A stretch of DNA of 44,846 bases, from NCBI GenBank assembly GCA_945889655.1, contig CAMDCH010000002.1:1-44846 (forward strand), read 5' to 3'. This stretch comes from a bacterium HR33. GTDB taxonomy: Bacteria; Gemmatimonadota; Gemmatimonadetes; Gemmatimonadales; GWC2-71-9. Of this stretch, positions 11,626 through 33,794 are shown piece after piece. The stretch's first letter is position 1. Every line of letters starts with the position of its first letter. Made by a program: the position numbers and the translations under genes. The notes below the pieces were generated by a model. That model did no database searches. It was not told where the DNA came from and was given only the letters and a program-made list of their open reading frames with translations.

Positions 11626-12218
11626 ATGCGGAGGTCCTGGCCGTTGAGCGAGCGCGAGAGCAGCTCCAGGCCGGGATTACCCGACCGCTCGGGGTGAAAC
11701 TGGAACCCCATGACCGCACCGCTGGAGACAATCGCGGGAAAACGCTCGCCCCACTCGGCTGTTTCCTTGACCACCGTCGGATCCTCGGGCTCCACCACGA
11801 AGCTGTGGGCGAAATAGAGCGGGGTGCGGGTCTTCCCCACCGGACACCAGCCCAGGTGCGGAAGCGGGAGGTCGTCCACGTTCAGCCTGCGCACATGACC
11901 CCCGAGGATCCCGATCCCCTGGACCCCCGGAGCTTCCTCGGACCAGCCGAACAACATCTGGAGGCCGAGACAGACTCCCACGACTCGGCGCCCGGAAGCG
12001 GCAGCGGCGCGGATGCTGTCCGCGACACCCGACGTGTTGATGGTGTTCATCGCGGCGCCGTAGTTCCCCACGCCGGGAAGCAGGATGGGGCCTTCCGCCG
12101 GCAGGTCCGCGGGCGCACGCACCAGCTTCTGCGGAAGGCCGAGCTCTTCCATCGCGCGGCGGGCATTGCCCAGGTTGCCCGCGCCATAGTCGATCACCGC
12201 GACTTCGAACGACTTCAC
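11622..12218 (-). CDS. hisH: imidazole glycerol phosphate synthase, glutamine amidotransferase subunit
   Basis: VAVIDYGAGNLGNARRAMEELG...GVCLGLQMLF (catalytic Cys)...FQFHPERS, a class I GATase of HisH type. Confidence 0.95.
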   Translation of the reverse strand: MKSFEVAVIDYGAGNLGNARRAMEELGLPQKLVRAPADLPAEGPILLPGVGNYGAAMNTINTSGVADSIRAAAASGRRVVGVCLGLQMLFGWSEEAPGVQGIGILGGHVRRLNVDDLPLPHLGWCPVGKTRTPLYFAHSFVVEPEDPTVVKETAEWGERFPAIVSSGAVMGFQFHPERSGNPGLELLSRSLNGQDLRI

Positions 12219-12844
12219 TCCAGCACGCCTTTTGTGCTCGGTATCGAGCCGCCGCGGGCGGGGTCACGGGAAACCGCGAGCCCAAGCGCCGCACCGGCGC
12301 TCTTGAAGAGCGCCTCGATCTTGTGGTGTTCGTTCTCTCCGTACTGGACCCGCACGTGCCAGTTGGCCTTGCTCGCGTTCGCCAGCGACTTGAAGAACTC
12401 CGGGAGCAGGTCGAGATCGAGATCGCCCTGCCGGTCCTTCGCGAACCGCGCGTCGAAGACGCAGTAGGGACGGCCCGACAGGTCCACCGCGCAGAAACCC
12501 AGCGCGTCATCCATCGGGACCGACGCACTGGCGGCCCGGCGGATGCCGCGCCGCTCGCCCAGCGCTTCGCGCAGCGCCTGCCCCAGCGCGAGACCCACAT
12601 CTTCGACCGTGTGATGCTGGTCGACCTGGACATCGCCTTTCGCCTCCAGCGTGAGATCCAGGTTGGCGAATCGGCAGAACGCGTCCAGCATGTGGCTGAA
12701 GAACGGAATCGGCGTCTCGATCTTCGTGGCACCGCTGCCATCCACGTTCAGCTCGAGCCTGATGGTCGTTTCGCCGGTCTTGCGCGATACCGACGCTCGC
12801 CGCCCCAAAGGCTTCGCGGGTGACCCCTTCCGCTTCGGACTCAT
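12215..12844 (-). CDS. hisB: imidazoleglycerol-phosphate dehydratase (monofunctional)
   Basis: RKTGETTIRLELNVDGSG...DQHHTVEDVGLALGQAL...GENEHHKIEALFKS. At 209 aa there is no fused phosphatase domain. Confidence 0.95.
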   Translation of the reverse strand: MSPKRKGSPAKPLGRRASVSRKTGETTIRLELNVDGSGATKIETPIPFFSHMLDAFCRFANLDLTLEAKGDVQVDQHHTVEDVGLALGQALREALGERRGIRRAASASVPMDDALGFCAVDLSGRPYCVFDARFAKDRQGDLDLDLLPEFFKSLANASKANWHVRVQYGENEHHKIEALFKSAGAALGLAVSRDPARGGSIPSTKGVLE

Positions 12845-14628
12845 GACTCGCTCCCCTCGTTGACGGCATCACGCTCGGCGAACACCGAAGCGATCTCCTC
12901 GGCACGGCCGATGATCGCGATGGGCTGGCCCTCGCGGAGCACCGCCTCGCGCCGGTCACCGGCGTCCGGGCCGCGCACGGCCACGGACCGGATGCCGGCG
13001 CGCTTCGCGGCCAGCAGGTCCGCCGGCCCGTCACCCACCATCCATGCCGCCTTTGCGCCGAGCTTCCGCAGGGCTGCTCTCACCGCGTCGGGCTCGGGTT
13101 TCTTCTTCTTCACGTCATCGGTGGTGATCACCGCCTTGAAGAAGCGAGCGGCTTTTCCGGCCTTCAGTGCCATGCGTGCTTCCTCGCGCGTCCGGCCTGT
13201 CACGATGCCCAGCGGAAACTGCTTCGCCAGCTTCTCGAGCGTCTTGAGCGGAAAGAGCCACTGCTCTTTGCGACAGAGTCCCGGTGTCTTCCGCGTGCCG
13301 AGGTAGATCTCCTGGAACCGGCGCTCGACCTCCTTGCGGTCGGCCTTCACGCCCAGCTTCGCCAGGGCGATGCAGGTCGCGTCGTGGTCGTCGTTGGCGT
13401 CGGTACGCTCTTTCACCGCCAGGATGCTCTCGCGGCCGGGGTTCTTCCCCGGCGGCAGGAAGCTGCGGACTGTCCGCACGATGGTTTCGTCGTAGGACTC
13501 GCGTACGTCCACCAGCACGCCATCCATGTCGAAGAGGATCGCGTCCGGCGCATCCGCCGTCAGCAGGCGCATCTCGTCCAGGAAGCGTTCGACCTCCCGG
13601 TCGGTCCCGGCGCTGATCCGCACCCATCCGCCCATGCCGGCCAGGTGGCTGCGGTTCCGGATCGCGATGCCGCGCCGCGCGAGCGCCTGCGTGACGCGGC
13701 CGGCGCGCTCCGTGTCGCCCAGGTCGAGCAGGACGAAGTTGGCGCGCGTCGGGAGGTTCTTCAGGTCCAGGTCGTCGAGACCGGCCGCCAGGCGGCGCAC
13801 GGCGCGACGTGACTGCTTCACGGTCGCGGTCACGTGCGCGCTGTCGTCGAGGGCTGCGAGGCCGAGCTCCGCGGCAGTTGCCGTGATTGGATAGGGGACA
13901 TTAATCCTGGCGAGCAGCTCGATCAGCGGGGCGCTGCCGATCAGCCCGCCGATCCGCTCGCCCGCCAGTCCCAGCGCCTTCGAGAAGGTCCGGCTCACGA
14001 GGACGTTCGGCAGCTTCACCGCGATGCGGATGGCACTCACCCCGAAGAACTCGGCGTAGGCCTCGTCCACCAGGAACAGGGTCCGCCGGTGATCCCGCGC
14101 CAGCCGCTCGAGGAATTCCAGCGCCGGGGCGGCGCCCGTCGGGTTGTCGGGATTGCCGAGCACCACCAGTCGCGGCGGCACGCCGGCGTCCTCGACCGCC
14201 GTCCGGAATCCCGCGGTGGGAAACGCGAATCCATTCGCCGCGTCCACCGGGACGGTGACGACTCTCGCTTCCCGCCGCTCGGCCGCCCACGCGTAGAGCT
14301 CGAAGGACGGTGCCGCCACGACGCAGCTGTCACCGCGGTTCAGCACGAGCTCGGCGGCCAGCGCGATGGCGGGACCAGAACCGGACGTCAGGAGCACCTG
14401 GTCGACCGAGACTTTGAGGTCCCGCGCCCACCGCTCGCGCAGGGCCTGTGGCGCCGGGTACCGCGAAAGATGCCCGCCTCCCAGCTCAGCCAGCCGGGCG
14501 AGCACCTTGGGCGATGCCCCCAGCGGGTTCTCGTTCCCGTCCAGCAGGACCGCGGGTCGCGCGCTCGTGAGGCCGCGGTACGGCGGCAGCGCGCGGACGG
14601 CTTCCCGCACCAGCTGCTCCACGCTCAT
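12841..14628 (-). CDS. hisC: histidinol-phosphate aminotransferase fused to a C-terminal HAD-superfamily phosphatase domain
   Basis: Track ORF 12841..15090 trimmed to the ATG at 14628 (MSVEQLVREAVRALPPY...), which overlaps the hisG stop (ATGA). Aminotransferase part: LDGNENPLG...SRTFSKALGLAGERIG (PLP Lys). C-terminal part: AILFDMDGVLVDV (HAD motif I)...GIVTGRTR...MVGDGPADLLAAKRAG. Confidence 0.9.
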   Translation of the reverse strand: MSVEQLVREAVRALPPYRGLTSARPAVLLDGNENPLGASPKVLARLAELGGGHLSRYPAPQALRERWARDLKVSVDQVLLTSGSGPAIALAAELVLNRGDSCVVAAPSFELYAWAAERREARVVTVPVDAANGFAFPTAGFRTAVEDAGVPPRLVVLGNPDNPTGAAPALEFLERLARDHRRTLFLVDEAYAEFFGVSAIRIAVKLPNVLVSRTFSKALGLAGERIGGLIGSAPLIELLARINVPYPITATAAELGLAALDDSAHVTATVKQSRRAVRRLAAGLDDLDLKNLPTRANFVLLDLGDTERAGRVTQALARRGIAIRNRSHLAGMGGWVRISAGTDREVERFLDEMRLLTADAPDAILFDMDGVLVDVRESYDETIVRTVRSFLPPGKNPGRESILAVKERTDANDDHDATCIALAKLGVKADRKEVERRFQEIYLGTRKTPGLCRKEQWLFPLKTLEKLAKQFPLGIVTGRTREEARMALKAGKAARFFKAVITTDDVKKKKPEPDAVRAALRKLGAKAAWMVGDGPADLLAAKRAGIRSVAVRGPDAGDRREAVLREGQPIAIIGRAEEIASVFAERDAVNEGSES

Positions 14629-15479
14629 GGAATGACCTTGCGGATCGGATACTCGAGGATGTCGCTCGCGCCCAGCTGCTTGAGCCGCGGCACGAGGCGG
14701 GGGACGTCGGCCTGCGGCACCGCGGCCTTCAGCACGTGCGAGCCGTCGGCGAGCTGGGAGACCGTGGGACTCTTCATCGCGGGCAGGAGCTTGATCACCT
14801 GGTCCAGGTTGCCGTTGGCGACGTTCATCTCCAGTATGACGCGACTCGCGGCGGCGCGCACACCACGCATGAGCAGCACGAGATCCTCGGCAAACTCCTT
14901 CACCTCCGGACGCTTCAGCGACGCCGCGGAGCCGATGAAGCGCGTCGAGGAGGACATGAGCTTCTCGACGATCACCAGGTTGTTCTCGCGCAGCGTCTGC
15001 CCCGTCGCGGAATTGTCGACGATCATGTCGGCGTCCTCGGGCGGGAAGACTTCCGTGGCCCCGTACGAGCGGACGAAACGGAACGCCCATCCCTTCTTCT
15101 CGAAGAAACGCCGCGTCAGGTTCTCGTATTCGGAAGCAACGACCAGCGGGGCCGCGCCGGACGGCGGCGGGGTCCAGCCCTGGGATGCCGCGGCCACGAT
15201 GTCTACGGGCTCCAGCTCCGTGTCATCCAGTATCTCCACCTGGCCGCCACTCTCGGAAATCCAGTCGAAGCCGGTGAAGCCAAGGTCGTGCCGGCCGAGC
15301 TCGACCAGCGCCGGGATGTTCTGCGGCTTGAGGATCTTCAGCTCGAGGCGCGGATCGCTGGCCTTCGGCCGGTAGGAACGCTCGTGCTCCTTGACCACCA
15401 GGCCCGCCTGTGCGAGCTGGGACAGGAGCGAGGTGAACATCCGGCCCTTCGGTAACGCGAGCGTTATTGGCTGTGACAT
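14625..15479 (-). CDS. hisG: ATP phosphoribosyltransferase, long form with C-terminal regulatory domain
   Basis: Track ORF 14625..15671 trimmed to the ATG at 15479 (MSQPITLALPKGRMF...). The upstream part of the ORF is translated repeat DNA. At 284 aa with a C-terminal HisG_C-like segment it is the long form. Confidence 0.93.
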   Translation of the reverse strand: MSQPITLALPKGRMFTSLLSQLAQAGLVVKEHERSYRPKASDPRLELKILKPQNIPALVELGRHDLGFTGFDWISESGGQVEILDDTELEPVDIVAAASQGWTPPPSGAAPLVVASEYENLTRRFFEKKGWAFRFVRSYGATEVFPPEDADMIVDNSATGQTLRENNLVIVEKLMSSSTRFIGSAASLKRPEVKEFAEDLVLLMRGVRAAASRVILEMNVANGNLDQVIKLLPAMKSPTVSQLADGSHVLKAAVPQADVPRLVPRLKQLGASDILEYPIRKVIP

Positions 15480-22322: not shown

Positions 22323-23960
22323 CTACACGAAAGCGAGCTGCGTTTCAACCAGCTGGCGATAGATGTCGCTCGTCTGAAGGAGGTCGGCGTGGATGCCGGT
22401 GGCAACCACGCGGCCCCCGGAGAGGACCACGATGCGGTCCGCCGCCAGGACGGTGCTGAGCCGGTGGGCGATGATCAGCGCCAATCGCTGGTCACGGGTT
22501 TCCTGGAGCGTTTCGAGTATCCGGCTCTCGGTTTGCGCGTCGAGACCGCTGGTCGCTTCGTCGAGCACCAGGATCGCCGGGCCGCCGGCCAGCGCCCGGG
22601 CCAGCGCGATCCGCTGGCGCTGGCCGGCTGAGAGTGCCACGCCGCGCGGTCCCACGCGGGAGGCGCGACCCGCCGGGAGTCCGTCAACGAAATCCGCCCC
22701 CGCAGCCTCCAGGGCATCGCGCACATCCTCGTCAGAAATCGTCCGGCCCAGCGTGACGTTCCACTCAACCGACTCATCGAAGACAAAGGCATCCTCGAAC
22801 ACCACGCCGATGTCGCCGTCCAGGGTGACGCTCCCGCGATCCGGAGCCTGGAGCCGGAGGAGGACGTGTGCCAGGGTGCTCTTCCCCGCCCCACTTTCCC
22901 CCACCACGGCCACGATCTCGCCGCGGGCGAGCCGCAGATCCACCTCGTCGAGCACCGGTTCACCGGGACGGTAGGAGAACGACACACCCTCCGCCTGGAG
23001 CCGCGCCGAGCGGGACCGGGAGGCCGCGGGCGCCGGTTCGTCGGCGGCGGGTTCGGAGATGAAGGAGAAGACGCTAGAGGCCGCGCCTTGGTGCTCCGCC
23101 AGCGCGGCCAGGGAATCGAACACCACGGAGAGCTGGCCCTGGAACCGGGCCAGCACCACCGCGAATGCGAGGATCAGCGTGGAGCTGGCAAAGAGTCGTT
23201 CCGGTGAAACCGCGAGCGCGACCCCGAGAGCGCCGAGGAGTATCAGGGCGTTCGCGACCTCGGAGAGGGGCCGGAGGGCGTGGCGCCAGCGGTGCAGCGC
23301 GAGCGTCGAATCGAGCACCGCGCGGTTGGCTGCACGATGAAGGTCCAGCCGGCCGGCCGGCGTCCCCATCGCCCGGACGACCGCATGCCCGCCGGCGTCG
23401 TCTGAAACGACCGCGCTGGCGTCCTCGTCGGCGCGCACCATCGCCACGGCCGCCGCGGCGACACGCCGCCGGACCATCCACGCGATGACCGTACCGGCCG
23501 AGAGAATCAGGACCGCCCCCAGGCCCAGCCTCCACGACAGCGACGCCATCATCACGAGGTATACCGCGACGAGCATCAGCGCCCCACCCAGCGCGACCAC
23601 CGCCGAGAGCGCCGACGCGACGCGTTCGGCCTGCACCGAGAACAGGTTGACGATGCGACCCGGGCCGAGGTGCTCCACGTCCCGGTAGCGGGCGGCGTAG
23701 AACCCGCGGGCCAGCCGCTCCCGGATCGACAGCAACACTCGCAGGTGAAGGCGCACGCCGAGCATGTCGAGCGCGTACCCCGCCCCCGCCCGCAACACGA
23801 TGACCCCTGCCAGCAGCAGCGCGCCTCTCCAGAGCGTCTCGGCCGACGCCGCGCGGAAGGCCGCGAGAACGGGCGGCACCAGTGCCAGGCAAGCGGCCTC
23901 GAGTCCCGCGACCACCGCGCTCATGGCGGCCATCACCACTCCCGACCGGCCAAGCTTCAT
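22323..23960 (-). CDS. ABC exporter (fused permease + ATPase), McjD-like position in a lasso-peptide cluster
   Basis: 545 aa with an N-terminal 6-TM region. Walker A GESGAGKST, signature LSAGQRQRIALARAL and Walker B ILVLDEATSGLD. The ATG at 23960 overlaps the kinase stop (ATGA). Confidence 0.92.
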   Translation of the reverse strand: MKLGRSGVVMAAMSAVVAGLEAACLALVPPVLAAFRAASAETLWRGALLLAGVIVLRAGAGYALDMLGVRLHLRVLLSIRERLARGFYAARYRDVEHLGPGRIVNLFSVQAERVASALSAVVALGGALMLVAVYLVMMASLSWRLGLGAVLILSAGTVIAWMVRRRVAAAAVAMVRADEDASAVVSDDAGGHAVVRAMGTPAGRLDLHRAANRAVLDSTLALHRWRHALRPLSEVANALILLGALGVALAVSPERLFASSTLILAFAVVLARFQGQLSVVFDSLAALAEHQGAASSVFSFISEPAADEPAPAASRSRSARLQAEGVSFSYRPGEPVLDEVDLRLARGEIVAVVGESGAGKSTLAHVLLRLQAPDRGSVTLDGDIGVVFEDAFVFDESVEWNVTLGRTISDEDVRDALEAAGADFVDGLPAGRASRVGPRGVALSAGQRQRIALARALAGGPAILVLDEATSGLDAQTESRILETLQETRDQRLALIIAHRLSTVLAADRIVVLSGGRVVATGIHADLLQTSDIYRQLVETQLAFV

Positions 23961-24883
23961 GACGCGAGGTCCTTCTCAATCGCGTCGCAGAGCGAGGGGA
24001 GCTTCGCGAGCAGCCGTGGGTACGCGAGCCGCTTCACGGGCACCGCGGCGGCGACCGCGCTCGCAAGCCGGAACTGGTTGGCGAGCCGCTCGGGACCGGT
24101 GACGATCGTGTTGAACGTGTTCCGGACGGTTTCGATCATGGCGGCGGCAGGGTCGAGCCGGCGGATCGCGATCCGGGCCGAGGGCAGCGTGGGATCGGAG
24201 AGCACGTAGATCGCGCGCAATGGCGCAGCGCGACGGCTTGCCCGGTGTTGGTCGAGCGGCAGGACCATCTTGCTCGTTCCCGGGTTCATGCGAGTCCCCT
24301 CGCGCCCCCCCAGGACCGCACGCGACACCGCGGGAAAGAGCTTGATGCGGGGGACGCCGGCGTGGACCAGGAACCCGCCGCCGCCGCGCGGGGCGAGCGA
24401 GACGAGATCATCGGTCAGGACGGGGAACCCGCGCGCCAGCATCGCCGCGCCGAGCGTGGACTTGCCGTAGCCGGTGTCGCCCAGGAAGGCAACAGCGCCG
24501 CCATCGACCACCACGACCGTCCCGTGCAGCGGCTCACGGCCGAGTGCCAGGAGCGAAAATGACAGGACCTGGCTCAGCAGGTAGGTACTGAACGACTCTC
24601 GCGACGCCCTGCGGAGACGCCGATACTCGATGCGGCGGCCGTCCGGTGAAATCAGAAAATCGAAGAGGTTGGTCCAGCCGAGATACATGGTACCGTCCGC
24701 GAGCTGGCGGCAGCGGAACCAGTCGCGCGCGTTGGGAAGACGGGTGCCGCGGAGCGCGCCGGCGAAGCGGCGGCGCGGTGCGGGAACGAGCCTGACGGTG
24801 GGTACTGATACCCGCGACGCACGGGGGCACGGGAGGGCAAGCGGACTCTGAAGACCGAGGCCGTAGAGCCGGTACAGGCTCAG
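23957..24883 (-). CDS. HPr-kinase-like P-loop serine kinase (lasso-peptide tailoring kinase candidate)
   Basis: P-loop FLGDTGYGKSTLGAAMLARGFPVLTDDL. The N-terminal LYRLYGLGLQSPLALP resembles the start of HprK-like RiPP kinases. No ATG/GTG/TTG is available there, so the start is provisionally placed at the CTG at 24883, which overlaps the precursor TGA. The first ATG (M145 of the track ORF) would remove the N-terminal domain. Confidence 0.75.
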   Translation of the reverse strand: MSLYRLYGLGLQSPLALPCPRASRVSVPTVRLVPAPRRRFAGALRGTRLPNARDWFRCRQLADGTMYLGWTNLFDFLISPDGRRIEYRRLRRASRESFSTYLLSQVLSFSLLALGREPLHGTVVVVDGGAVAFLGDTGYGKSTLGAAMLARGFPVLTDDLVSLAPRGGGGFLVHAGVPRIKLFPAVSRAVLGGREGTRMNPGTSKMVLPLDQHRASRRAAPLRAIYVLSDPTLPSARIAIRRLDPAAAMIETVRNTFNTIVTGPERLANQFRLASAVAAAVPVKRLAYPRLLAKLPSLCDAIEKDLAS

Positions 24884-25038
24884 GAGTTGGAGCCCGACGC
24901 CCGCGTGGTAGGCTTGCGCGCACCGTCGGCCATGCTGCCCTTCTTTACCAGGGTGAGTGCACGCAGATCGCCGTGCACCACGAGGCGAGGGGCCTGGTAG
25001 GGACGTTTCGGATGCGCCAAAGACTTCCTGGGACTCAT
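24880..25038 (-). CDS. lasso-peptide precursor (52 aa: MSPRKSLAHPKRPYQAPRLVVHGDLRALTLVKKGSMADGARKPTTRASGSNS)
   Basis: Track ORF 24880..25083 trimmed to the ATG at 25038, which has GGAGGT 6 nt upstream and overlaps the cyclase stop (ATGA). The leader fits YxxPxLx3Gx5Tx (Y14, P17, L19, G23, T29). The predicted core is VKKGSMADGARKPTTRASGSNS. Confidence 0.75.
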   Translation of the reverse strand: MSPRKSLAHPKRPYQAPRLVVHGDLRALTLVKKGSMADGARKPTTRASGSNS

Positions 25039-26942
25039 GATCTGACCTCCATCTGGGAGCGACTGAAAAATACCCGTAGCCATGCCTCCAAGCCAAGCAG
25101 GTCAACCAGGTCCCACCCATCGGTGGCCTCTTTGCCCGCCAGTCCGGCGGCCATCCGGTCGACCGCCGGCTGAAGGCGACCGCCGTCCACGTAGCCCATC
25201 CTCACCCCCAGGCTACCCGGCCCCAGGCGGGCGCGAATTGCCGCCAGGTCCTGGGCCACGCCGTGGTTCGTGGCCTCGGTGAAGTCGGCCTTCCAGCGGC
25301 GCGCGCGCACCCGTTCCGGCAGGATGCCGCGCATCGCTTCCCTGAGTATGGCGCGCGGGACGCCTTCGTGATTCTGGACCTCGCCCGGGATCGCCATCAG
25401 GAACGCGAGCAAGTCGCGGTCCAGGAATGGGAACGCCGCCTCGAGCCCGTGCGACGCCGCGATCTTGTTGTTCCACTCCATGCACTGCACATGGTACTTG
25501 GACCGGGCTTCGAGGTACAGCGAGCGCGCCTGCGCCGAATGAAACCCGCTTCCCAGCATCGCCGGCCGGTCCGCATCCTTCAGTCCGCCGGCGAGGAACC
25601 GGTCCGAATACCAGGAGCGGGGACGCGCATCGGCAAAGAGCCGCCGCCGCACCCACTTCAGCGGCCCGACCAGCGCGTCCGGCGCGTGGTGGCGGAGCAG
25701 TTCCATCGGCAGGCGGCCGCGGAGCGTAGCCACTTCTTCCCTGCCGAACCACCGCAGGTACTCGCGCGTGTGGCTCCATGCCTTGCGCCAGGCGAAACGA
25801 CTCACGAGATCAACCAGGTACGCCGGCGAGAAGAGCACCTGGTCACCCCAGTGTCCCGAGAGCATCACCCGCGCACCCGCGCGCCCGGCGCGCGCGTCCA
25901 GCTCGCAGGTAACGCCCCACTGGTAATCGAGAAACGGCGCCTCGATGGCACCCACCTGCGTCTCGACCCCGGCTAGCGCACCCGCGTGCACTTCCATTGG
26001 AAAGCGCCCGATGGAGACGCCGTATTCGCGCTCGATTTCCTCGAGATACTCGCGCTCATCGGCGTCCGAACCCGTGGCACCGAGGTACGCGAAACCAAGC
26101 ACGGAGCCCGTTCGTAGCTTCTGCGCCTGGCAAAAGATGGACGATGAATCGAGCCCGCCGCTGGTGGAGACGGCGACCGGGTATGCAGATCGCACGCGTC
26201 GTGCCACCGCCTGGGCAAAGAGCTCCGCGAACGCATCGCGGTACTCCTCGAAGCGGCTAAGTCGAATGGCCGCCGAGGGATCGAAGTCCCAGTAGCGCCG
26301 TGCAACAGCGGCGTCCGTTGTGACGGTGACAACATGCGCCGGGACAACTGCGGAAATCCCTGCAAAGCACGTGACATCCTGCCGGTCTACGGGTCGAGCC
26401 CCTACCAGGAGGAAATCGGCCAATCCCTCGTCATCGGGCGCGGCGCGAATCTCGGGATGCGCCAGGAGGGCCTTGATCTCGGTAGCGAACGCGACGAACC
26501 GTTTGCCGCGGTGGTAGTAGAGCGGCCGGATCCCGATGGCGTCGCGCGCAAGGATGAGGCGGGCCCGTGCCGAGTCGTAGAGCGCGAGGGCGAAATCCCC
26601 GCTGAGATGGTCGACGAACGAGTCGCCAAGGCGAGCGTAGGCCGCGAGCACCACTCTCGCGTCGGTGCTGGATGACGACAGACCCAGCTTCGAGATCAGC
26701 TCAGGACGATTGTCGAGCCGGCCATCCCAGGCCAGCAGGAGGCCCTGCTCGTTGAGCGGCTGCCGTTCGCCGACCTCCTCGGGCGTGATCCACATGCGAC
26801 GGTGCGCGAAGCCGACCGCGCCCGCGATGCACCGGTCGCCGCCATCGGGACCGCGGTGGGCGAGCGTGGCGTCCATGCGTTCGAGGACGGCCGGCGACAG
26901 CGGAGCGCCGTCGGTATTCCACACTCCCGATATCCCGCTCAT
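25035..26942 (-). CDS. asparagine-synthetase-like lasso-peptide cyclase (C protein)
   Basis: Track ORF 25035..27350 trimmed to the ATG at 26942 (MSGISGVWNTDGAPL...). It has an N-terminal Ntn-amidotransferase-like domain and an AsnB-type adenylation domain (AVSTSGGLDSSSIF PP-loop). Confidence 0.9.
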   Translation of the reverse strand: MSGISGVWNTDGAPLSPAVLERMDATLAHRGPDGGDRCIAGAVGFAHRRMWITPEEVGERQPLNEQGLLLAWDGRLDNRPELISKLGLSSSSTDARVVLAAYARLGDSFVDHLSGDFALALYDSARARLILARDAIGIRPLYYHRGKRFVAFATEIKALLAHPEIRAAPDDEGLADFLLVGARPVDRQDVTCFAGISAVVPAHVVTVTTDAAVARRYWDFDPSAAIRLSRFEEYRDAFAELFAQAVARRVRSAYPVAVSTSGGLDSSSIFCQAQKLRTGSVLGFAYLGATGSDADEREYLEEIEREYGVSIGRFPMEVHAGALAGVETQVGAIEAPFLDYQWGVTCELDARAGRAGARVMLSGHWGDQVLFSPAYLVDLVSRFAWRKAWSHTREYLRWFGREEVATLRGRLPMELLRHHAPDALVGPLKWVRRRLFADARPRSWYSDRFLAGGLKDADRPAMLGSGFHSAQARSLYLEARSKYHVQCMEWNNKIAASHGLEAAFPFLDRDLLAFLMAIPGEVQNHEGVPRAILREAMRGILPERVRARRWKADFTEATNHGVAQDLAAIRARLGPGSLGVRMGYVDGGRLQPAVDRMAAGLAGKEATDGWDLVDLLGLEAWLRVFFSRSQMEVRS

Positions 26943-26957
26943 AGATTTGAGTATACC

Positions 26958-27254
26958 ATGCCCGTTCCCGTGATTGCCCCGCACACCACCGTCGTTTCCG
27001 CCGGCGAGCTGCTGTCCAGCGAGTTCGGCGAAGAGTTCATCATCCTGAACCTGAAGGACGGGATTTACTATGGGCTGGATCACGTCGGTGCCCGGGTGTG
27101 GACGCTCATCAAGCAACCGATGACCGTGGGCGCGGTGCGGGATGCGCTGGTGGCGGAGTATGAGGTGGACGTTGCCCAGTGCGAACGCGATCTCGTTGCG
27201 CTGCTCGAGGACCTGGTGACCAAGGGGCTGGTCGAGCTCCGGGCGGACGCCTGA
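26958..27254 (+). CDS. PqqD-family RiPP recognition element (lasso B1 protein)
   Basis: Track ORF trimmed to the ATG at 26958. ...GEEFIILNLKDGIYYGLDHVGARVWTLIKQPMTVGAVRDALVAEYEVDVAQCERDLVALLEDLVTKGLV is a typical PqqD fold signature. Confidence 0.85.
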   Translation: MPVPVIAPHTTVVSAGELLSSEFGEEFIILNLKDGIYYGLDHVGARVWTLIKQPMTVGAVRDALVAEYEVDVAQCERDLVALLEDLVTKGLVELRADA

Positions 27255-27685
27255 GCAAGCTCGCGAAGTTCTTTGGGCTGCCCGCGACCGACAAGTGGCT
27301 GCTCGTTCGCACGGCGTTCGTGATGACGCTGGTGCGGGTGGGACTGGCACTGATGCCCTTCTCGGCGCTGAAACGGCTGGTGGAGAGGGATAGAACCGGA
27401 ACCTCGGAGGGTCTGGCCGACCTTCCCGAGCGGGTTTCCTGGGCGATCGCCGTGCTCTCGTCGCGGGTCCCGGGAAAGAACACCTGCCTTGTCCAGGCCC
27501 TGACCGCCGACTCGCTGCTCCGTCGCGGTGGCTACCGGCCCACGCTGCGCATTGGCGTGGCGGGACGGAATCCGGGTGGGACCATCAAGGCCCACGCGTG
27601 GCTGGAGTGCGAAGGCCGAGTGATCACCGGCGGACTCGAGGACCTATCCAGCTACTCGGTGCTGACGTCGCCCGGACGGGGATGA
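27251..27685 (+). CDS. transglutaminase-like cysteine protease (lasso B2 leader peptidase)
   Basis: NTCLVQALTADSLLRRGGYRPTLRIGV...IKAHAWLECEGRVITG contains the Cys and His of the B2 catalytic site. The family-like N-terminus LSKLAKFFGLPATDKW begins at the CTG at 27251, which overlaps the B1 TGA. The alternative start is the track GTG at 27179 (76-nt overlap with B1). Confidence 0.72.
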   Translation: MSKLAKFFGLPATDKWLLVRTAFVMTLVRVGLALMPFSALKRLVERDRTGTSEGLADLPERVSWAIAVLSSRVPGKNTCLVQALTADSLLRRGGYRPTLRIGVAGRNPGGTIKAHAWLECEGRVITGGLEDLSSYSVLTSPGRG

Positions 27686-28782
27686 CCGAGGCGGTCGCCC
27701 GGATTCTCCGCGGCGAGGCCCCCGCATGGAGCGAGGTCGGCGCGACACCCGCCGCCTTTCTCGAATACTGCGAGCGGGAAGACCTGATTCCCCTCGTTCA
27801 TCACAACCTGCACAGTGGTTGGCCCGTGGAGGTCTCGGCGGCGCTGGAGCGCGCGGCCCGCGATGCCGCAGCCCGCGAGATGGTCCGGCGACAGGAAATC
27901 ACCCGCGTTCTCACCCTGCTCGACGAGGCCGGCATCCGGCCGATCGTCTTCAAAGGAACCGCCCTCGCCTATCTCGTCTATCCGGCGCCCGGACTTCGCC
28001 CGCGCAACGACACCGATCTTTTGATCCGCCGCGCTGACGTGGACCCAGCGCGCGCCGTTTTCGCGGCAACCGGATACGTAGAGCCCGCATACAGTGGTGA
28101 CGAGCTGCTCTTCCGGCAGTTTGAGGCGCAGCGGGAAGATTCTCTCGGTGTCCACCATGCGTTCGATGTCCATTGGGAGATCAGCACCCAGTCCGCCTTT
28201 GCGAACCTGCTCTCCTACGATGATCTCGCGAATTACAGCGTGCCGGCGCCGATGCTGGGGGCCGCCGCGCGAGCGGCGGGGCCCGTGGAGGCGCTGCTCA
28301 TCGCGTGCGTCCATCCAGCCATGCACCATCGCAATGAAGAACGGCTGATCTGGCTGTTTGACGTGCACCTGCTGGCGGGACGGCTCGCACCGGAGGAATG
28401 GAAACGGTTCAGCGCGACTGCCCTGTCACGAAAAACAGGAGTCGTATGCGCATACGCGCTGCGACATGCGCATGACCTGCTTGGAACCGCGATACCCCCT
28501 CACATCATCAACAATCTGGAGTCCGCAGCGGGCGATGAGCCAACCGCCGCCTACCTCGACCGGTCGCGCTCGTGGCGGCATGAGGTCGGTGCGAACATCC
28601 GCGGGCTTTCATCGTGGAGTGACCGGCTCGGCTTGCTGCGGGAGATCGCGTTTCCGCGGCCGAGCTACATACTAGAGAAGTACGAATGGAAGGACACGCT
28701 GCCGGCTCGGCTCGGACTACCGTGGCTCTACTTCAGGCGCGCGATGGAAGGGACCTGGAAGGTGGTGTCCGGGAAAAAATGA
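27682..28782 (+). CDS. nucleotidyltransferase-family protein of the type found in lasso/RiPP clusters
   Basis: Track ORF trimmed to the ATG at 27682, which overlaps the B2 stop (ATGA). IVFKGTALAYLVYPAPGLRPRNDTDLLI carries the G-x...D-x-D nucleotidyltransferase signature. Confidence 0.78.
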   Translation: MTEAVARILRGEAPAWSEVGATPAAFLEYCEREDLIPLVHHNLHSGWPVEVSAALERAARDAAAREMVRRQEITRVLTLLDEAGIRPIVFKGTALAYLVYPAPGLRPRNDTDLLIRRADVDPARAVFAATGYVEPAYSGDELLFRQFEAQREDSLGVHHAFDVHWEISTQSAFANLLSYDDLANYSVPAPMLGAAARAAGPVEALLIACVHPAMHHRNEERLIWLFDVHLLAGRLAPEEWKRFSATALSRKTGVVCAYALRHAHDLLGTAIPPHIINNLESAAGDEPTAAYLDRSRSWRHEVGANIRGLSSWSDRLGLLREIAFPRPSYILEKYEWKDTLPARLGLPWLYFRRAMEGTWKVVSGKK

Positions 28783-28786
28783 CGCC

Positions 28787-29971
28787 TCAGATACCGCGGC
28801 TCAGTTGAACGAGCGACCCACCTGAACCGACGCGGTAACGATAGACGAAGTCGAGAGGATCGCCCGACTCGACCTCAAGCGGACATCCAGCAGTCCACAC
28901 GGCCACGTTCCAGCTGCAGCCGTCGTGAGCGCGGCGCGGATCGTTCGTCAGCGTGATGCCGCGAGCGAGATCGAGCTCGAAATACTCCACGACGGCATCA
29001 ATGCGCCCGGCCGCACTGGCCTGGATCGAAGCGGTAGCGTCCACCGCGGCGCCCGTGAACGACGCCAGGTCTACCTTGCTGAGCAGCGCGGGGTCTGACA
29101 GCGGCTCCCACCCTTGAGCGACTCGCGGCCTCACAAAGAACGGGGCAATCTCGTGTCGTTGCCGTGCCAAGGCGTGAAAATCCATGTCGTACCATTCCCG
29201 CCACCGCGCCGCGGCAGCTTCACTCGCGATGCGTCCTCCCAAGGGGTCGCCCCCAATCGAAACGGGCAAGGCGTAGGTCCTGAGACCGGAGGGAATCATC
29301 CGGGCGCCCGGGACCAGGAGCCGCTTGCGCGCGTCCAGCAGGACTTCCAGCAGGCTCTCGGCCAGCGGCTCGTGGCCGACGATCTCCGCCACCAGCACGT
29401 CCGCACGCTTCTCGATGGTTACCTGCGTCGACCAGTTCTGCAGGACCGAGATGCGCTGAGTGAACCCATTCGCGCGAACCATCTCGCGGGCGGTCTCGGC
29501 GACGCTGTCAGCTTCGATCGCGTAGACCTGCCCGGCACCCGCTTTCGCTGCCGCGATGGCCAGGACGCCGGTCCCGGTTCCTATGTCGAGCACCACGTCC
29601 CCCGGTTTCACCGTGGCCTGAACTGCCGCGATGAACCCTTCGGTCCGCACCCGGTCATTGAGCATGACCACGTGATGATCCAGCGAAATGGTCGAGGTCC
29701 TGACCGGCTCCCCGTCTCCGATCAGGGCCCCGACGCTGATGAGCTGATCCATCGTAGAGACGCAATCCATCCAGTCCTGCGCCCCGGTGAGCCGAGGCTT
29801 GAGCAGCTCGACTGCCTCCTCGATGGTGAGCAAGCGGCCGAAAACGTCGAGAATCCCCAGGGCATGCGGGCCGGCGTGCAGGTCTGTGCCGTTGACCGAG
29901 ACACGTACGCCTGAGACCTCAGTGCGGATGATGAGGCCCGGAGCGCGAGAATAGCGAACACTGTCCATCAC
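28787..29971 (-). CDS. PRMT-like class I SAM-dependent methyltransferase with N-terminal PqqD/RRE-like domain
   Basis: The N-terminal ~85 aa (GVRVSVNGTDLHAGPHALGILDVFGRLLTIEEAVELLKPRL...MDQLISVGALI) look like a winged-helix RRE. The core VVLDIGTGTGVLAIAAAKAGAGQVYAIEADS...ADVLVAEIVGHEPLAESLLEVLLDARKRLLVPGARMIPS matches PRMT motif I, post-I and the double-E loop. Start is the GTG at 29971 or the ATG at 29968, both overlapping the M1 peptidase stop. Confidence 0.78.
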   Translation of the reverse strand: MMDSVRYSRAPGLIIRTEVSGVRVSVNGTDLHAGPHALGILDVFGRLLTIEEAVELLKPRLTGAQDWMDCVSTMDQLISVGALIGDGEPVRTSTISLDHHVVMLNDRVRTEGFIAAVQATVKPGDVVLDIGTGTGVLAIAAAKAGAGQVYAIEADSVAETAREMVRANGFTQRISVLQNWSTQVTIEKRADVLVAEIVGHEPLAESLLEVLLDARKRLLVPGARMIPSGLRTYALPVSIGGDPLGGRIASEAAAARWREWYDMDFHALARQRHEIAPFFVRPRVAQGWEPLSDPALLSKVDLASFTGAAVDATASIQASAAGRIDAVVEYFELDLARGITLTNDPRRAHDGCSWNVAVWTAGCPLEVESGDPLDFVYRYRVGSGGSLVQLSRGI

Positions 29972-31863
29972 TCTCGGGCGTTGTTGCTGCGGTCAATGTC
30001 CGGCAGCCCCGCGTGCGGATCGATCTCGGCCCGGCGAACGCGTTTGCCCGCGACACGGTAGGTGAATTGCGAGCCCAGGTTCCACATCTCCACGGGCAGC
30101 TCCACCGGGACCACCGTGCCGTCCTGGTACGTAATCGCCAGCTCGGCCGGCATGATCATGGTCCCACGACTCGACAGGTGTATCGCCGAGCCGCTGTCCG
30201 AGACAACGACCGAATCCACCGCCTGGTCGAGCCGGGCGGTGGTGTAGATCCACCCCCGCCAGAACCAGTCCAGCTCCATCCCCGAGACGTCGCGCATCAC
30301 GCGGAAGAAGTCGGCGGGCGTGGGATGCTTGAAGGCCCACGCGCGCGCGTACTCGCGGAAGGCTGCATCAAAGCGTTCCTTGCCAAGCACCTCGTTCCGC
30401 AGCAACCGCATCATGAGCGCCGGCTTCTGGTAGCCCGCCCAGAGCAGGTCACGGACCTGCGTCGGTACCGCGATCAGCGGCTGTTCGTCGCCGGGCTTCC
30501 CATGCTCGGGATAGAGGTTGAGGGGGTGCTCCTGGATGGTGTCACCGTAGGCGGTGCCGTCGAAGTAGTTCGCCGTGTTCTCCAGGTCGATGAACGTGTT
30601 GAACCCTTCGTCCATCCACGGGTAGAGCCGCTCGTTGGAGCCCACGACCATCGGGAACCACTGGTGCCCGAACTCATGCGCGATCACCCATTGCAGGTCT
30701 TCACGGGTGGGACTGTCGGGACAGAAGGTCAGCATCGGGTACTCCATCCCAGCGATGGGACCCTCGACAGTGGTCGCGTGCGAGTAGGGATAGGGATACC
30801 ACTGCTCGCTGAAGTGCTTGATCGCCTCGCGTCCCATGCGGTTGGCTTCTTCCCACTTGGTCGCGGAGGGCCGGTAGAGCGTCTCGACCAGCGCCCACTT
30901 GTAGCCACTCGCGTCCCAGCGCAGTCCGGGACTCGTGGCCCAGGCAAAGTCGCGCACGCTGTCGGCCGCGAAGTGCCAGGTGAGCATTCCGCTCGCAGCC
31001 GGCCGAGTCTTCGCGACATCGCCCGCCTCTTCCTTCGTAATGATCCCGATGGCGGTGTCCGATGTGCGTGCCCGCGCGAGCCGCGTGCGCTGTGTTGCGG
31101 TCAGGACCTGGAGCGGGTTGAGCAGCTTGCCAGTGGCCGCGACCAGGAACGATGCGGGCACCGTGAGCGAAACGTCGAAGCTGCCGTACTCCAGGTAGAA
31201 CTCGCCTGCGCCGATGTACGGCTCATGATTCCAGCCGCGCACGTCGTCATAGACCACAAGACGCGGATACCACTGGGCGACCTGGTAAAGTTGTCCGTCC
31301 CGCCCCATCCGCCCCGCCCCCGCCACCGGCACGTGGAACCGCCAGCCGATGGCCACGGTCGCGACGGCACCGGAGGCGAGGGGCGCCGGGAGATCGATCC
31401 GCATGGTGGTCCCCGTGACCAGCGGCGTCACCCGCTTACCCGCAACGACCACCGAGTCGAGCGTCACCCCGCCCTGGAATCCCTGGCAGGAGAAGTCGAA
31501 CGCGGTGCCCAGGAAGACCAACGGCGGCTGGTTCAGCTGGTTGGTGACGCTGTTCGGCGCGCAGATGTTCTGCTCGAGGAAGAGCCACAGGTAGCTGAGC
31601 GTCTCGGGCGACCGGTTGGTGTAGCGGATCGTCTGCCGGCCGGTGATCTCGTTGGTCGCAGTGTCCAGCGTCGCGGCGATCGTGTAGTCCACGCGCTGCT
31701 GCCAGTAGCCTCGCCCCGGGCGTCCGGAACCAGTCCGGACCTGGTTCGGTGCCGGAAGGTCGAGTGGGCGAAAGAGCGAGGTGTCCGCCGCGCTTTGCTG
31801 CGCGCGACTGGCCACGGGGGCGGCGAGAAGAACCAGGGCGAGACCGATGATCCGCGACACCAT
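29968..31863 (-). CDS. secreted M1-family zinc metallopeptidase (aminopeptidase N-like)
   Basis: Signal peptide MVSRIIGLALVLLAAPVASRAQQ. HEFGH followed 18 residues later by E (HEFGHQWFPMVVGSNERLYPWMDEG), the M1 HEXXH-X18-E motif. Confidence 0.9.
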   Translation of the reverse strand: MVSRIIGLALVLLAAPVASRAQQSAADTSLFRPLDLPAPNQVRTGSGRPGRGYWQQRVDYTIAATLDTATNEITGRQTIRYTNRSPETLSYLWLFLEQNICAPNSVTNQLNQPPLVFLGTAFDFSCQGFQGGVTLDSVVVAGKRVTPLVTGTTMRIDLPAPLASGAVATVAIGWRFHVPVAGAGRMGRDGQLYQVAQWYPRLVVYDDVRGWNHEPYIGAGEFYLEYGSFDVSLTVPASFLVAATGKLLNPLQVLTATQRTRLARARTSDTAIGIITKEEAGDVAKTRPAASGMLTWHFAADSVRDFAWATSPGLRWDASGYKWALVETLYRPSATKWEEANRMGREAIKHFSEQWYPYPYSHATTVEGPIAGMEYPMLTFCPDSPTREDLQWVIAHEFGHQWFPMVVGSNERLYPWMDEGFNTFIDLENTANYFDGTAYGDTIQEHPLNLYPEHGKPGDEQPLIAVPTQVRDLLWAGYQKPALMMRLLRNEVLGKERFDAAFREYARAWAFKHPTPADFFRVMRDVSGMELDWFWRGWIYTTARLDQAVDSVVVSDSGSAIHLSSRGTMIMPAELAITYQDGTVVPVELPVEMWNLGSQFTYRVAGKRVRRAEIDPHAGLPDIDRSNNARE

Positions 31864-31958: not shown

Positions 31959-33530
31959 CTACTTGACTCTCATCCTCACGACGCGTGACCCACCGCGCTC
32001 GCCCGGCCCCTGGGCGTTGTAGACCCGCAGCTCGACGATGTCGCCGGCCTTGACGGTGGAGACTGCCTGGGTGAATTCCGTCACCGTCCTCACGCGGGTG
32101 CCGTCCACGTGGGTGATGATGTCGCCCGGCCCGTCCTGGGCCGCTGGCTGCAGTTTCTCTGCCGCGGGACCGTCCTGATCCACCGCGGTGACGCCGAGCC
32201 CCGTGTTCTCGGGCGTGTCACCTGACACGGGTGCGACGCTGATCCCCAGCTTCTGGTTGAGCGGCGCCGCGGCAGGAGCCCGGCCGGCACGGCCGGTCGA
32301 GCTCGTTGCTACGGGTTCTTCGCTAGGCGCGGCGATCAGGGCCACCTTCAGGTTCACCTTCACACCGCCCTTGCGCTGAACGGTGAGCGTGACGATTTCG
32401 CCCGGCTTCCGGAACGCCACCGCCTGCTGGAACTGCGCGATGTATTCAATCATTTTCCCATCGATCGCGACGACGACGTCGCCCGGCCGCACGCCCGCGG
32501 CCTCCGCGGGACTGTTCTCGACTGAGAAGTCCTGCACGACCGCACCGCTCACCGCGTCGAGCTTCGCGTACTCGGCGTCTTCCGGCTGGACCGTCCCGAG
32601 TCGCAGGCCGATGATCGCGCGATTCACCTTTCCATTCTTGATCAGCTCATCCATCACATGCTGGGCCAGGTTGCTCGGGATCGCGAAGCCGTAGCCTTCG
32701 TAGGTGCCGGTCTGCGTGGCGATCGCGGAGTTGATGCCGATCACCTTGCCGTCGGCGTTCACCAGCGGGCCACCGGAGTTGCCCGGGTTGATCGCGGCAT
32801 CGGTCTGGATGAAGTCCTGGATGCCGTAGTTGGTTTCTCCATTGCGCAGGCCGTTCAGGGGGCGCCCCTTGGCGCTCACGATGCCGGCCGTTACGGTGAA
32901 CGTCAGATCCTGCCCCATCGGGTTGCCGATGGCGAGAACCCATTCACCCACCCGGGTCGAATCCGAGTTTCCGAAGCTCACGACCGGCAGGTTCCGGGCG
33001 TCGATCTTGATGACGGCGACATCGGTCGCGGGGTCGCGGCCAACCACGGTCGCGGGATACGTGCGGCCGTTGAAAAGCGTGACGCGCAGCCTGTCAGCGT
33101 CACGCACGACGTGGCTGTTGGTCATGATGTAGCCATCCGGGCTGACGACGAAGCCGGTGCCCGAGCTGGTGCTGCGCTGCATGCCGTCAGGGTCGGTGTC
33201 AGGCATGCCGGGCATGGGGGTATTCGGGTTCTGTCGCTGCCACTGCCGGAAGAAGTCCTGGAATGCATCGGAGCGGCTGTTGGGCACCGGGGCCGCGCGC
33301 CGGGTGTCGGCCCGGATGAAGACCACGGCCGGCCGCACGGTCTCGGCCACGTTGGCAAAGGCATCACTCCACGCTGCCATCGTGTTGGCGGTAGCCGCCG
33401 GTGCCGCCACGGCGGCGGGGGCGGACGCAGCCGGTGCCGACGGGTGCTCGACCGCCCAGGCCACGAGGGCCGGGCCGAGCAGGATACCGAGTCCGGCGCC
33501 GAGCTGAGCGTATCTCTTCCACAGCTTCAT
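31959..33530 (-). CDS. htrA: HtrA/DegP-family periplasmic serine protease with two PDZ domains
   Basis: Track ORF trimmed to the ATG at 33530 (AGGAG upstream). Catalytic motifs IMTNSHVV, D in the loop and GNSGGPLVN. Two PDZ-like segments with GVRPGDVVVAIDG and GPGDIITHVDG. Confidence 0.93.
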   Translation of the reverse strand: MKLWKRYAQLGAGLGILLGPALVAWAVEHPSAPAASAPAAVAAPAATANTMAAWSDAFANVAETVRPAVVFIRADTRRAAPVPNSRSDAFQDFFRQWQRQNPNTPMPGMPDTDPDGMQRSTSSGTGFVVSPDGYIMTNSHVVRDADRLRVTLFNGRTYPATVVGRDPATDVAVIKIDARNLPVVSFGNSDSTRVGEWVLAIGNPMGQDLTFTVTAGIVSAKGRPLNGLRNGETNYGIQDFIQTDAAINPGNSGGPLVNADGKVIGINSAIATQTGTYEGYGFAIPSNLAQHVMDELIKNGKVNRAIIGLRLGTVQPEDAEYAKLDAVSGAVVQDFSVENSPAEAAGVRPGDVVVAIDGKMIEYIAQFQQAVAFRKPGEIVTLTVQRKGGVKVNLKVALIAAPSEEPVATSSTGRAGRAPAAAPLNQKLGISVAPVSGDTPENTGLGVTAVDQDGPAAEKLQPAAQDGPGDIITHVDGTRVRTVTEFTQAVSTVKAGDIVELRVYNAQGPGERGGSRVVRMRVK

Positions 33531-33794
33531 CGTTCGTTCTCCTGATTGCTGTTGGGGGCTGGCGGAGTAGCCGAACCCCGGTTGCGTCCCCTGCAATGTG
33601 ACATGATGCACGGCGGCATGGTGAGGTCGCAGTCGGAACAATGGAACATTGTGGCGTTACCGCAACGTGGCATGCTGCCCACGGTCGCGCATCTGTATTT
33701 CCCGAATCCCTGATTCCTCAATGCTTTAGCTCTCTCTAGAACAGTGCACGTGTCTTGCTTGTTCCCTCTGCGCGCCCGTACAACAGGAGAGACG

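Follow-up and report, generated by a model that had tools for sequence, protein, structure and literature searches.

In lasso peptide clusters of the paeninodin and pseudomycoidin type, a kinase (K) and a nucleotidyltransferase (N) phosphorylate and glycosylate the C-terminal Ser, according to reviews. The modifications of lasso peptides covered by reviews up to June 2026 are methyl esters, aspartimide, phosphorylation, glycosylation, acetylation, citrullination, hydroxylation, epimerisation and prenylation. Methyl transfer in lasso clusters is represented by LasF and StspM (C-terminal carboxyl O-methylation) and by the PIMT homologues TceM and LihM (Asp methyl ester to aspartimide). Among other peptides that are made by ribosomes and modified after translation (RiPPs), deletion of tsaG abolished the bis-N-methylation of His12 in the thioamitide thiostreptamide S4, TsaG being a pfam06325 protein (Eyles et al., Chem Sci 2021, PMC8153245). 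The present analysis concerns a 394-aa methyltransferase encoded beside a lasso peptide cluster in a Gemmatimonadota bacterium (bacterium HR33, assembly GCA_945889655.1); the stretch analysed, hereafter the window, comprises positions 1 to 44,846 of contig CAMDCH010000002.1, forward strand. With high confidence, this protein is an enzyme of protein arginine methyltransferase (PRMT) fold with an N-terminal domain of RiPP recognition element (RRE) fold. On balance, it is regarded as a RiPP tailoring N-methyltransferase of a TsaG-like family that would N-methylate the neighbouring lasso precursor, with Arg as the favoured acceptor.

The window resembles the paeninodin/pseudomycoidin-type clusters in having A, C, B1, B2, D, an HprK-like kinase, an NTP_transf_5 nucleotidyltransferase and a precursor ending in Ser, but differs in that no PRMT-like methyltransferase has been described there, that the producer belongs to Gemmatimonadota and that the predicted core begins with Val. 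Its methyltransferase would share with LasF, StspM, TceM and LihM the character of a tailoring enzyme that depends on S-adenosylmethionine (SAM) and is encoded with a lasso cluster, and with StspM also the action on a linear precursor. Those four are O-methyltransferases of other folds and families with carboxylate targets, whereas the window enzyme has the PRMT fold, is predicted to be an N-methyltransferase and carries an RRE of its own. Neither the enzyme family (TsaG) nor the two types of domain are new; in the literature, no description was found of the PRMT nature of the family, of its RRE fold or of its recurrence in lasso and kinase/nucleotidyltransferase cassettes. The literature on lasso peptides with methyl-arginine or a PRMT likewise yielded nothing relevant, and an earlier reading of the window from its sequence only (the sequence-only reading), which knew of no lasso peptide with N-methylated Arg or Lys, agrees with the reviews up to June 2026.

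Catalytic module and N-terminal domain

The gene, its parts and the gene coupled to it are as follows.

28787..29971, minus strand: gene of the RRE-PRMT fusion methyltransferase; start GTG 29971 (394 aa) or ATG 29968 (393 aa); stop codon 28787-28789
29708..29971, minus strand: N-terminal RRE-like domain, residues 1-88, from AlphaFold2, Foldseek and hhalign
29267..29683, minus strand: SAM-binding Rossmann module, residues ~97-235; double-E loop at nucleotides 29357-29386
28790..29266, minus strand: PRMT-type C-terminal beta-barrel with helical arm, residues 236-394; THW-loop equivalent C-S-W354
29968..31863, minus strand: M1-family metallopeptidase, predicted secreted, 631 aa; Pfam Peptidase_M1 2.5e-13; upstream of the methyltransferase and translationally coupled to it

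Both open reading frames of the sequence-only reading (28787-29971, minus strand, 394 aa; 29968-31863, minus strand, 631 aa) were present as described, and the three segments that it took as PRMT hallmarks (VLDIGTGTGVL, YAIEA and AEIVGHEPLAESLL) were all found in the 394-aa translation. The hallmarks were borne out by alignment, profile and Foldseek, which identify a genuine enzyme of PRMT fold whose double-E loop is intact.

In a 57-sequence alignment, D125, G131, T132, G133, G135 and E153 of motif I (VLDIGTGTG) and post-I were invariant. In the helix H100-x2-M103-L104-x-D106-x2-R109-T110, M103, L104, D106 and R109 were invariant and H100 and T110 were conserved in at least 90% of the sequences. 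The double-E loop (E196-x8-E205), which in PRMTs clamps the guanidinium, had an invariant E205 and an E196 conserved in at least 90%. W354 was also conserved in at least 90% and aligned with the Trp of THW, the residue before it, His or Ser in the family, being Ser in the window. The family profile matched only PRMTs among all PDB sequences (E 2.6e-53 to 6e-38), covering the Rossmann and barrel parts and reaching position ~398 of 404, and a residue-level alignment placed the double-E and THW loops on those of PRMT4.2/PRMT10 (3r0q) and PRMT7, with the double-E loop matching SEWMGYFLLRE of 3r0q. The AlphaFold2 model of the full protein had a pLDDT of 92.8 and a pTM of 0.86. The best 50 Foldseek matches were all PRMTs (TbPRMT7, PRMT6, PRMT1, PRMT3, PRMT2; E down to 2.5e-22), and for the best matches the target-normalised template modelling (TM) score was 0.71-0.79 to PRMT7, PRMT6 and PRMT1 over 305-320 columns.

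Among 5.8 billion proteins searched, 264 homologues were found (E <= 1e-5), those listed being mostly ~400 aa long with coverage of ~90% or more of the query. Pfam assigned PrmA (8.9e-19) to the methyltransferase together with PRMT_C at 22 bits, below the cut-off of 27; PRMT_C is on record for most homologues. No NCBIfam model was passed by the protein. Identity with PrmA was ruled out: TIGR00406 scored 61.7 bits against a cut-off of 183 and covered residues 116-230 only, and the structural and profile matches were best to PRMTs. Judged from alignment and model, residues ~97-394 are a complete PRMT module and not PrmA.

With the eukaryotic PRMTs (PRMT1, PRMT6, PRMT7, PRMT10/4.2, CARM1) the protein shares the Rossmann module, the beta-barrel and the helical arm, as well as the H-x2-ML-x-D-x2-RT helix, motif I, the post-I Glu, E-x8-E and the Trp of THW. 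Unlike them it is bacterial, has C-S-W in place of THW, is 19-27% identical in sequence, carries an RRE-fold domain where theirs is an SH3, zinc-finger or PH domain, and has as its presumed substrate a small RiPP precursor and not a protein.

The N-terminal domain (residues 1-88) was conserved across the family. Modelled alone with AlphaFold2 (pLDDT 92.5), it had strands at residues 6-9, 14-18, 21-26 and 29-33, helices at 36-43, 50-60 and 64-80, and a short closing strand. Its best 32 Foldseek matches in the PDB were all RRE-containing RiPP enzymes or discrete RREs, among them ThcOx, MccB, TigE, TbiB1 (leader-bound), PqqD, the PbtF RRE, TfuB1 (leader-bound), TruD, SuiB and McbB (E 4e-3 to 5e-2; query-normalised TM score 0.6-0.7 over 84-93 columns); E-values of this modest size are expected for an 88-residue query. 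With few exceptions, the PDB matches as a whole were of this kind. Aligned with hhalign to nine PqqD proteins of the lasso loci described below, the domain matched in register over 72 columns (74% probability, E 2.7e-5). Structure prediction and Foldseek, which the sequence-only reading had proposed for this region, recovered the RRE fold; the resemblance to PqqD-type RREs that it had noted showed in fold comparison and in hhalign, and not in hidden Markov model (HMM) searches for PqqD.

Known RREs (PqqD-like proteins, TbiB1, TfuB1, the MccB clamp, the N-terminal domains of ThcOx and TruD) and the window domain are alike in order of secondary structure and in fold, and in that the latter is N-terminal on a tailoring enzyme within RiPP clusters. 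They differ in that the window domain lacks HMM-level similarity to PF05402 or any solved RRE, and in that a separate RRE, B1, is already present in the window cluster. Among 1.84 billion representatives, the domain profile matched 491 cluster representatives at E <= 1e-3 and 321 at E <= 1e-10. In the 150 matches listed, the domain was N-terminal or nearly so, in proteins of ~400 aa or in shorter ones that are probably fragments. On the models, this is a distinct and rare RRE-fold family, mainly fused to this methyltransferase, with a predicted role in peptide docking.

Gene neighbourhoods of the family

Twenty-two informative loci encoding the fusion were collected, the window included (L-numbers denote family loci). 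Generic motif-I matches swamped the scans with the full alignment, from which 5 full-length family loci were obtained in genomes and 7 in metagenomes. Eighty loci with orthologues of the M1 peptidase served as control and were searched with the same tblastn queries. Homologues of the methyltransferase repeatedly lay within or near RiPP genes in this survey, which the sequence-only reading had called for: RiPP genes were near the methyltransferase in 15 of the 22 family loci and in 0 of the 80 controls (Fisher p 5e-13), and, with tblastn hits alone, in 9/20 versus 0/80 (p 9e-8).

A lasso cyclase was present in seven of the 22 loci (window, L083/L084, L086, L088, L091, L092, L002). The methyltransferase gene was inside the lasso operon in L083/L084, L086, L088 and L092, and merely near the cyclase in L002 and L091. 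Gene order was A-C-ABC-ABC2-PqqD-methyltransferase, convergent with B2-kinase-nucleotidyltransferase, in L083/L084, and methyltransferase-PqqD-kinase-B2-nucleotidyltransferase, convergent with C-A, in L086. Lasso clusters linked to the methyltransferase were all of the kinase type, and all that were not truncated by a contig end also carried the nucleotidyltransferase. The window kinase was homologous to ~300-aa genes of L083, L086, L088, L091 and L092. In another seven loci (L087, L248, L249, L251, L252, L004, L008), no cyclase lay within ~10 kb and the neighbours were PqqD, an HprK-related kinase and/or NTP_transf_5. One locus (L005) was a thioamitide cluster, and L250 was ambiguous, with LanC-like, HopA1 and APH genes 8-10 kb away. 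NTP_transf_5 was the most frequent neighbour of the family and adjoined the methyltransferase in L083, L086, L087, L249, L004, L008, L251 and L252. The family was spread over Gemmatimonadota, Cyanobacteria, Bacteroidota, Actinomycetota, Verrucomicrobiota and Proteobacteria; its rarity (491 clusters in 1.84 billion representatives) and phylogenetic patchiness fit accessory and not housekeeping genes.

The thioamitide-type cluster of L005 (Streptomyces mutomycini NZ_MAPV01000129, 6180-14951) was complete by Pfam (APH-HopA1-flavoprotein-methyltransferase-YcaO-TfuA-PhyH-C1 peptidase) and followed the tsaC-K order of thioamitide clusters, with the family member at the position of TsaG. The L005 protein was 35% identical to the window protein over residues 9-388 (E 8e-66), matched the N-domain profile (E 2.8e-21) and formed a long, isolated branch in the family tree. 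It is probably orthologous to TsaG, on the basis of synteny and Pfam family. By analogy with TsaG, for which it was shown genetically, the family is already tied to side-chain N-methylation of RiPPs; this characterised member type had escaped the sequence-only reading. The window enzyme resembles the TsaG/TvaG type (thiostreptamide S4, thioviridamide) in end-to-end alignment including the N-terminal domain and in being a RiPP-cluster enzyme that would N-methylate a basic side chain; it differs in RiPP class (lasso versus thioamitide), in a core without His and in the double-E loop (E...E versus D...M). The E-x8-E pair was kept in 21 of the 22 family loci, Asp and Met taking its place only in L005. 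No YcaO, TfuA or HFCD genes were present in the window.

The M1 peptidase has HEFGH...WMDEGF and a signal-peptide-like N-terminus (MVSRIIGLALVLLAAPVASRA/QQ), judged from sequence by eye, in line with the secreted M1 enzyme described by the sequence-only reading. The start of the methyltransferase overlaps its stop, as that reading had noted (GTGA for the GTG start, TGATG for the ATG one codon later); ATG 29968 is the start used by the metagenome gene call. A functional partnership of the two, raised as trimming of an exported product, found no support in the control loci: orthologues in 80 Gemmatimonadota genomes (62-72% identity) had neither methyltransferase nor lasso genes within 6 kb (0/80), and the M1 gene was beside the methyltransferase in no family locus except the window. 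The coupling in the window is a local arrangement with a conserved Gemmatimonadota gene outside the system. The DegP-like neighbour of the window was also missing within 6 kb at all 80 orthologue loci.

Several loci without a cyclase had further features. In L087 (7966-12084), genes for a PqqD protein, NTP_transf_5, the methyltransferase and an HprK-related kinase form a cassette in a 4.2-Mb contig, inserted between its rpoBC and rpsL-tuf operons, and no cyclase lies within 10 kb; the 176-aa PqqD protein ends in a Cys-/Arg-rich tail (…CNRRRCCNGVCRNQRRARQQCGC), possibly a substrate peptide that is joined to its own RRE. In L248 (1497-4993; named Verrucomicrobiota by its source) and L251 (4427-9173), neither lasso cyclase nor B2 was present, and the methyltransferase is convergent with an HprK-like kinase, PqqD and a GT2 glycosyltransferase, with NTP_transf_5 also in L251. 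L252 (473-2895) has two tandem RRE-PRMT paralogues (403 and 404 aa) upstream of ABC transporter, NTP_transf_5 and GT2 genes.

A second PRMT-like subfamily was seen in kinase/nucleotidyltransferase-type lasso clusters (L010, L016, L095, L101 at 9716-10951, L106). It lacks both the N-terminal domain and the double-E pair, and four of the five members (not L101) have a C-terminal extension of ~80 aa with a helix pattern resembling PqqD, in which Pfam found no PqqD.

The lasso cluster of the window and the proposed substrate

The genes on the other side of the methyltransferase are listed below.

27682..28782, plus strand: NTP_transf_5 nucleotidyltransferase (PsmN-like), 366 aa; Pfam 2.5e-38; convergent with the methyltransferase
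27179..27685, plus strand: lasso leader peptidase B2; Transglut_core3 4.1e-23; NCBIfam lasso_biosyn_B2 1.5e-27, above cut-off
26958..27254, plus strand: lasso B1, discrete PqqD-type RRE; PqqD 2.9e-18; NCBIfam lasso_PqqD_Bac 2.9e-19, 69 bits against a cut-off of 80
25035..26942, minus strand: lasso cyclase C, Asn-synthase-like, ATG 26942; Asn_synthase 9.3e-44; NCBIfam lasso cyclase 3.7e-108, below cut-off
24880..25038, minus strand: lasso precursor; leader MSPRKSLAHPKRPYQAPRLVVHGDLRALTL, then predicted core VKKGSMADGARKPTTRASGSNS
23957..~24883, minus strand: HprK-related kinase, homologue of the paeninodin-type C-terminal Ser kinase; Hpr_kinase_C 4.9e-5; HprK_rel_A 1e-7, below cut-off
22323..23960, minus strand: ABC exporter D; ABC_membrane and ABC_tran

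By these matches, the cluster is a complete one of the kinase/nucleotidyltransferase type (A, B1, B2, C, D, HprK-like kinase, NTP_transf_5). The ATG of the precursor (24880-25038) overlaps the stop of the cyclase gene. No other short-tailed sequence of the window matched P-x-L-x3-G-x5-T-x, the central part of the lasso leader motif, and the precursor has a Tyr three residues ahead of the Pro as in the full motif Y-x2-P-x-L-x3-G-x5-T-x. Its predicted core has Val1, Asp8, two Arg, three Lys, no His and a C-terminal Ser, the last being a known kinase target in lasso peptides according to reviews. The convergent stops of the nucleotidyltransferase (TGA ending at 28782) and the methyltransferase (tca on the plus strand, beginning at 28787) are 4 nt apart, and no terminator-like site was found between them, both as the sequence-only reading had stated.

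In the predicted cores of both the window (24880-25038) and L088 (4401-4604), residue 1 is Val and residue 8 is Asp (VKKGSMAD…, VNGDPNSD…), and the leader ends ahead of them are near-identical (…VHGxxxxxTL). Val1 is unusual as a ring-forming residue of lasso peptides. The precursors L083:5816-5974, L086:15829-16020 and L092:5590-5793 have a canonical leader ending in HTF, then ~14-16 Pro-/Gly-rich residues and then a conserved GFVNCR[IV]E…NCELSHPG segment with a Gly1-Glu8 ring candidate and two Cys. In these three, the ring start is likely to be far from the T-x cleavage motif, as read from the sequences.

Action of the enzyme on a RiPP precursor is probable, and action on the lasso precursor of the window somewhat less so, though still favoured. 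From the computed fold, motifs, family and gene neighbourhoods we infer the following binding, substrate residue, methyl transfer and timing. The N-terminal domain would bind the linear, leader-bearing precursor encoded at 24880-25038, and the PRMT module, probably a dimer as in PRMTs, would transfer a SAM methyl group to a nitrogen in a side chain of the core, the likeliest acceptor being the guanidinium of Arg11 or Arg16. Methylation would precede leader removal by B1/B2 and Val1-Asp8 ring closure by C, and the pathway would yield a lasso peptide of the kinase/nucleotidyltransferase type that is phosphorylated and/or glycosylated and in addition carries N-methyl-arginine.

Arg is put forward tentatively as the target, at slightly under even chances, and is favoured over other residues because the lasso-associated members all keep E-x8-E (D...M in the His-specific thioamitide member) and because the window core has two Arg and no His. 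Since TsaG bis-N-methylates His, N-methylation of a RiPP by this family would not be unprecedented, Arg being the presumed and not the demonstrated acceptor. All four precursor types linked to the methyltransferase contain at least one Arg; in a search for a conserved Arg position this did not count as evidence, the sample being too small and Arg too common.

Several observations weigh against N-methylation of the lasso precursor on Arg. As regards the residue, at least one Arg is expected by chance in 70-85% of cores of such length (an estimate from ordinary Arg frequency), the only characterised member type methylates His and not Arg, and no lasso peptide with methylated Arg was reported in the literature. 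As regards the N-terminal domain, hmmscan with Pfam matched PqqD in none of 34 N-terminal domains (E <= 10), the domain profile found nothing relevant and no significant solved RRE among all PDB sequences, and Foldseek E-values of only 4e-3 to 5e-2 with an hhalign probability of only 74% weaken the assignment; some enzyme-fused RRE folds, such as that of ThcOx, are moreover thought to be vestigial. As regards the loci, no RiPP genes lay within ~10 kb of the methyltransferase in six of the 22 (L003, L006, L082, L085, L090, L253), and in the window itself the gene is outside the lasso operon, convergent with the nucleotidyltransferase and co-transcribed with the housekeeping M1 gene. The family also tracks the nucleotidyltransferase and kinase more tightly than the cyclase, so that their product could be the true determinant of the substrate.

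The alternative that survives best, though unlikely, is leader-guided tailoring of an acceptor other than Arg: a lysine (Lys2, Lys3 or Lys12), the alpha-amine of Val1 once the leader is off or, as regards other clusters, a His close to the C-terminus. It would accord with the methylation of His imidazole nitrogens by TsaG, the one characterised member type, with a His conserved three residues ahead of G[SD] in the L083, L086 and L092 cores, with the Lys-rich window core and with Ser in place of the THW-loop His in the window (C-S-W). The guanidinium-clamping double-E loop is, however, strictly kept in the lasso-linked members, its loss being confined to the thioamitide (His) member; His is absent from the cores of the window, L088 and L002; and likeness to PrmA, a methyltransferase of Lys and alpha-amines, is confined to the Rossmann part (61.7 bits against 183).

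An accidental adjacency is improbable. The enzyme would then be a housekeeping protein methyltransferase, with for example a ribosomal target, expressed with the M1 peptidase, and its N-terminal domain a generic winged-helix or protein-interaction module. Co-transcription with M1 convergent to the lasso operon, the six family loci without RiPP neighbours and the L087 cassette between the rpoC and rpsL operons are compatible with this, as is the RRE-Finder paper, whose authors discarded 1,050 methyltransferase matches as presumed false positives. Against it stand the RiPP neighbours in 15/22 family loci versus 0/80 controls, the rare and patchy distribution, which fits accessory genes, and the M1 orthologue loci of 80 species, which lack the methyltransferase.

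Least probable is that the methyltransferase acts on, or needs for recognition, the phosphate, sugar or nucleotide that kinase and nucleotidyltransferase build on the C-terminal Ser: its steadiest neighbours are NTP_transf_5 and the HprK-like kinase, even where no cyclase or B2 was seen (L087, L248, L249, L251, L252, L004, L008), the nucleotidyltransferase gene is directly upstream in L249 and L008, and a basic residue stands three positions ahead of the C-terminal Ser or G[SD] in three of four precursor types (the nearest Arg being six before it in the window), but the active site, with all PRMT SAM-binding and double-E residues present, fits N-methylation of a cationic side chain, the thioamitide relative works without such a kinase or nucleotidyltransferase, and to our knowledge no PRMT-fold enzyme methylates phosphate or sugar.

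If N-methylation of the lasso precursor on Arg is correct, its product would be among the first lasso peptides with methylated arginine, and a leader-guided enzyme that N-methylates Arg or Lys would extend the engineering toolbox for these very stable peptides. A more general reading, possible but held with less confidence than the Arg assignment in the window, is that a small family of bacterial RRE-bearing PRMTs installs N-methyl-arginine on ribosomal peptides, one scaffold being retuned through changes of the double-E loop for Arg (lasso, PqqD/kinase/nucleotidyltransferase cassettes) or His (thioamitides). The family would then be a compact bacterial model for substrate choice in PRMTs, the loop being kept whole in members linked to lasso clusters and changed in the thioamitide member, which methylates His. 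It also suggests that at least some of the methyltransferase matches of RRE-Finder are genuine RRE fusions, which could serve as a handle for genome mining, and it points to cassettes of PqqD, HprK-like kinase and nucleotidyltransferase without a lasso cyclase within ~10 kb.

Other features of the window

Around the start of the HprK-like kinase gene (24871-24890), no ATG, GTG or TTG was near the conserved N-terminus (LSLYRLYGL…). In frame, the closest starts are 25120, from where the gene would run over the entire precursor gene, and a Met ~145 codons into the open reading frame. The real start looks like a CTG overlapping the precursor stop (CTGA), judging from the sequence. The mechanical open reading frame 25035-27350 is 136 codons too long for the cyclase. 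Only 15 bp (26943-26957) separate the start of the cyclase (ATG 26942, minus strand) from that of the divergent B1 (ATG 26958, plus strand), so that both promoters must sit within the opposite coding regions.

Three envelope-type peptidase families were present in the window: S46 (4515-6731), M1 (29968-31863) and a DegP/HtrA-like protein with PDZ domains (31959-33641). A segment of the his operon was at 10855-15090, with an aminotransferase open reading frame that has a C-terminal HAD-type hydrolase domain.

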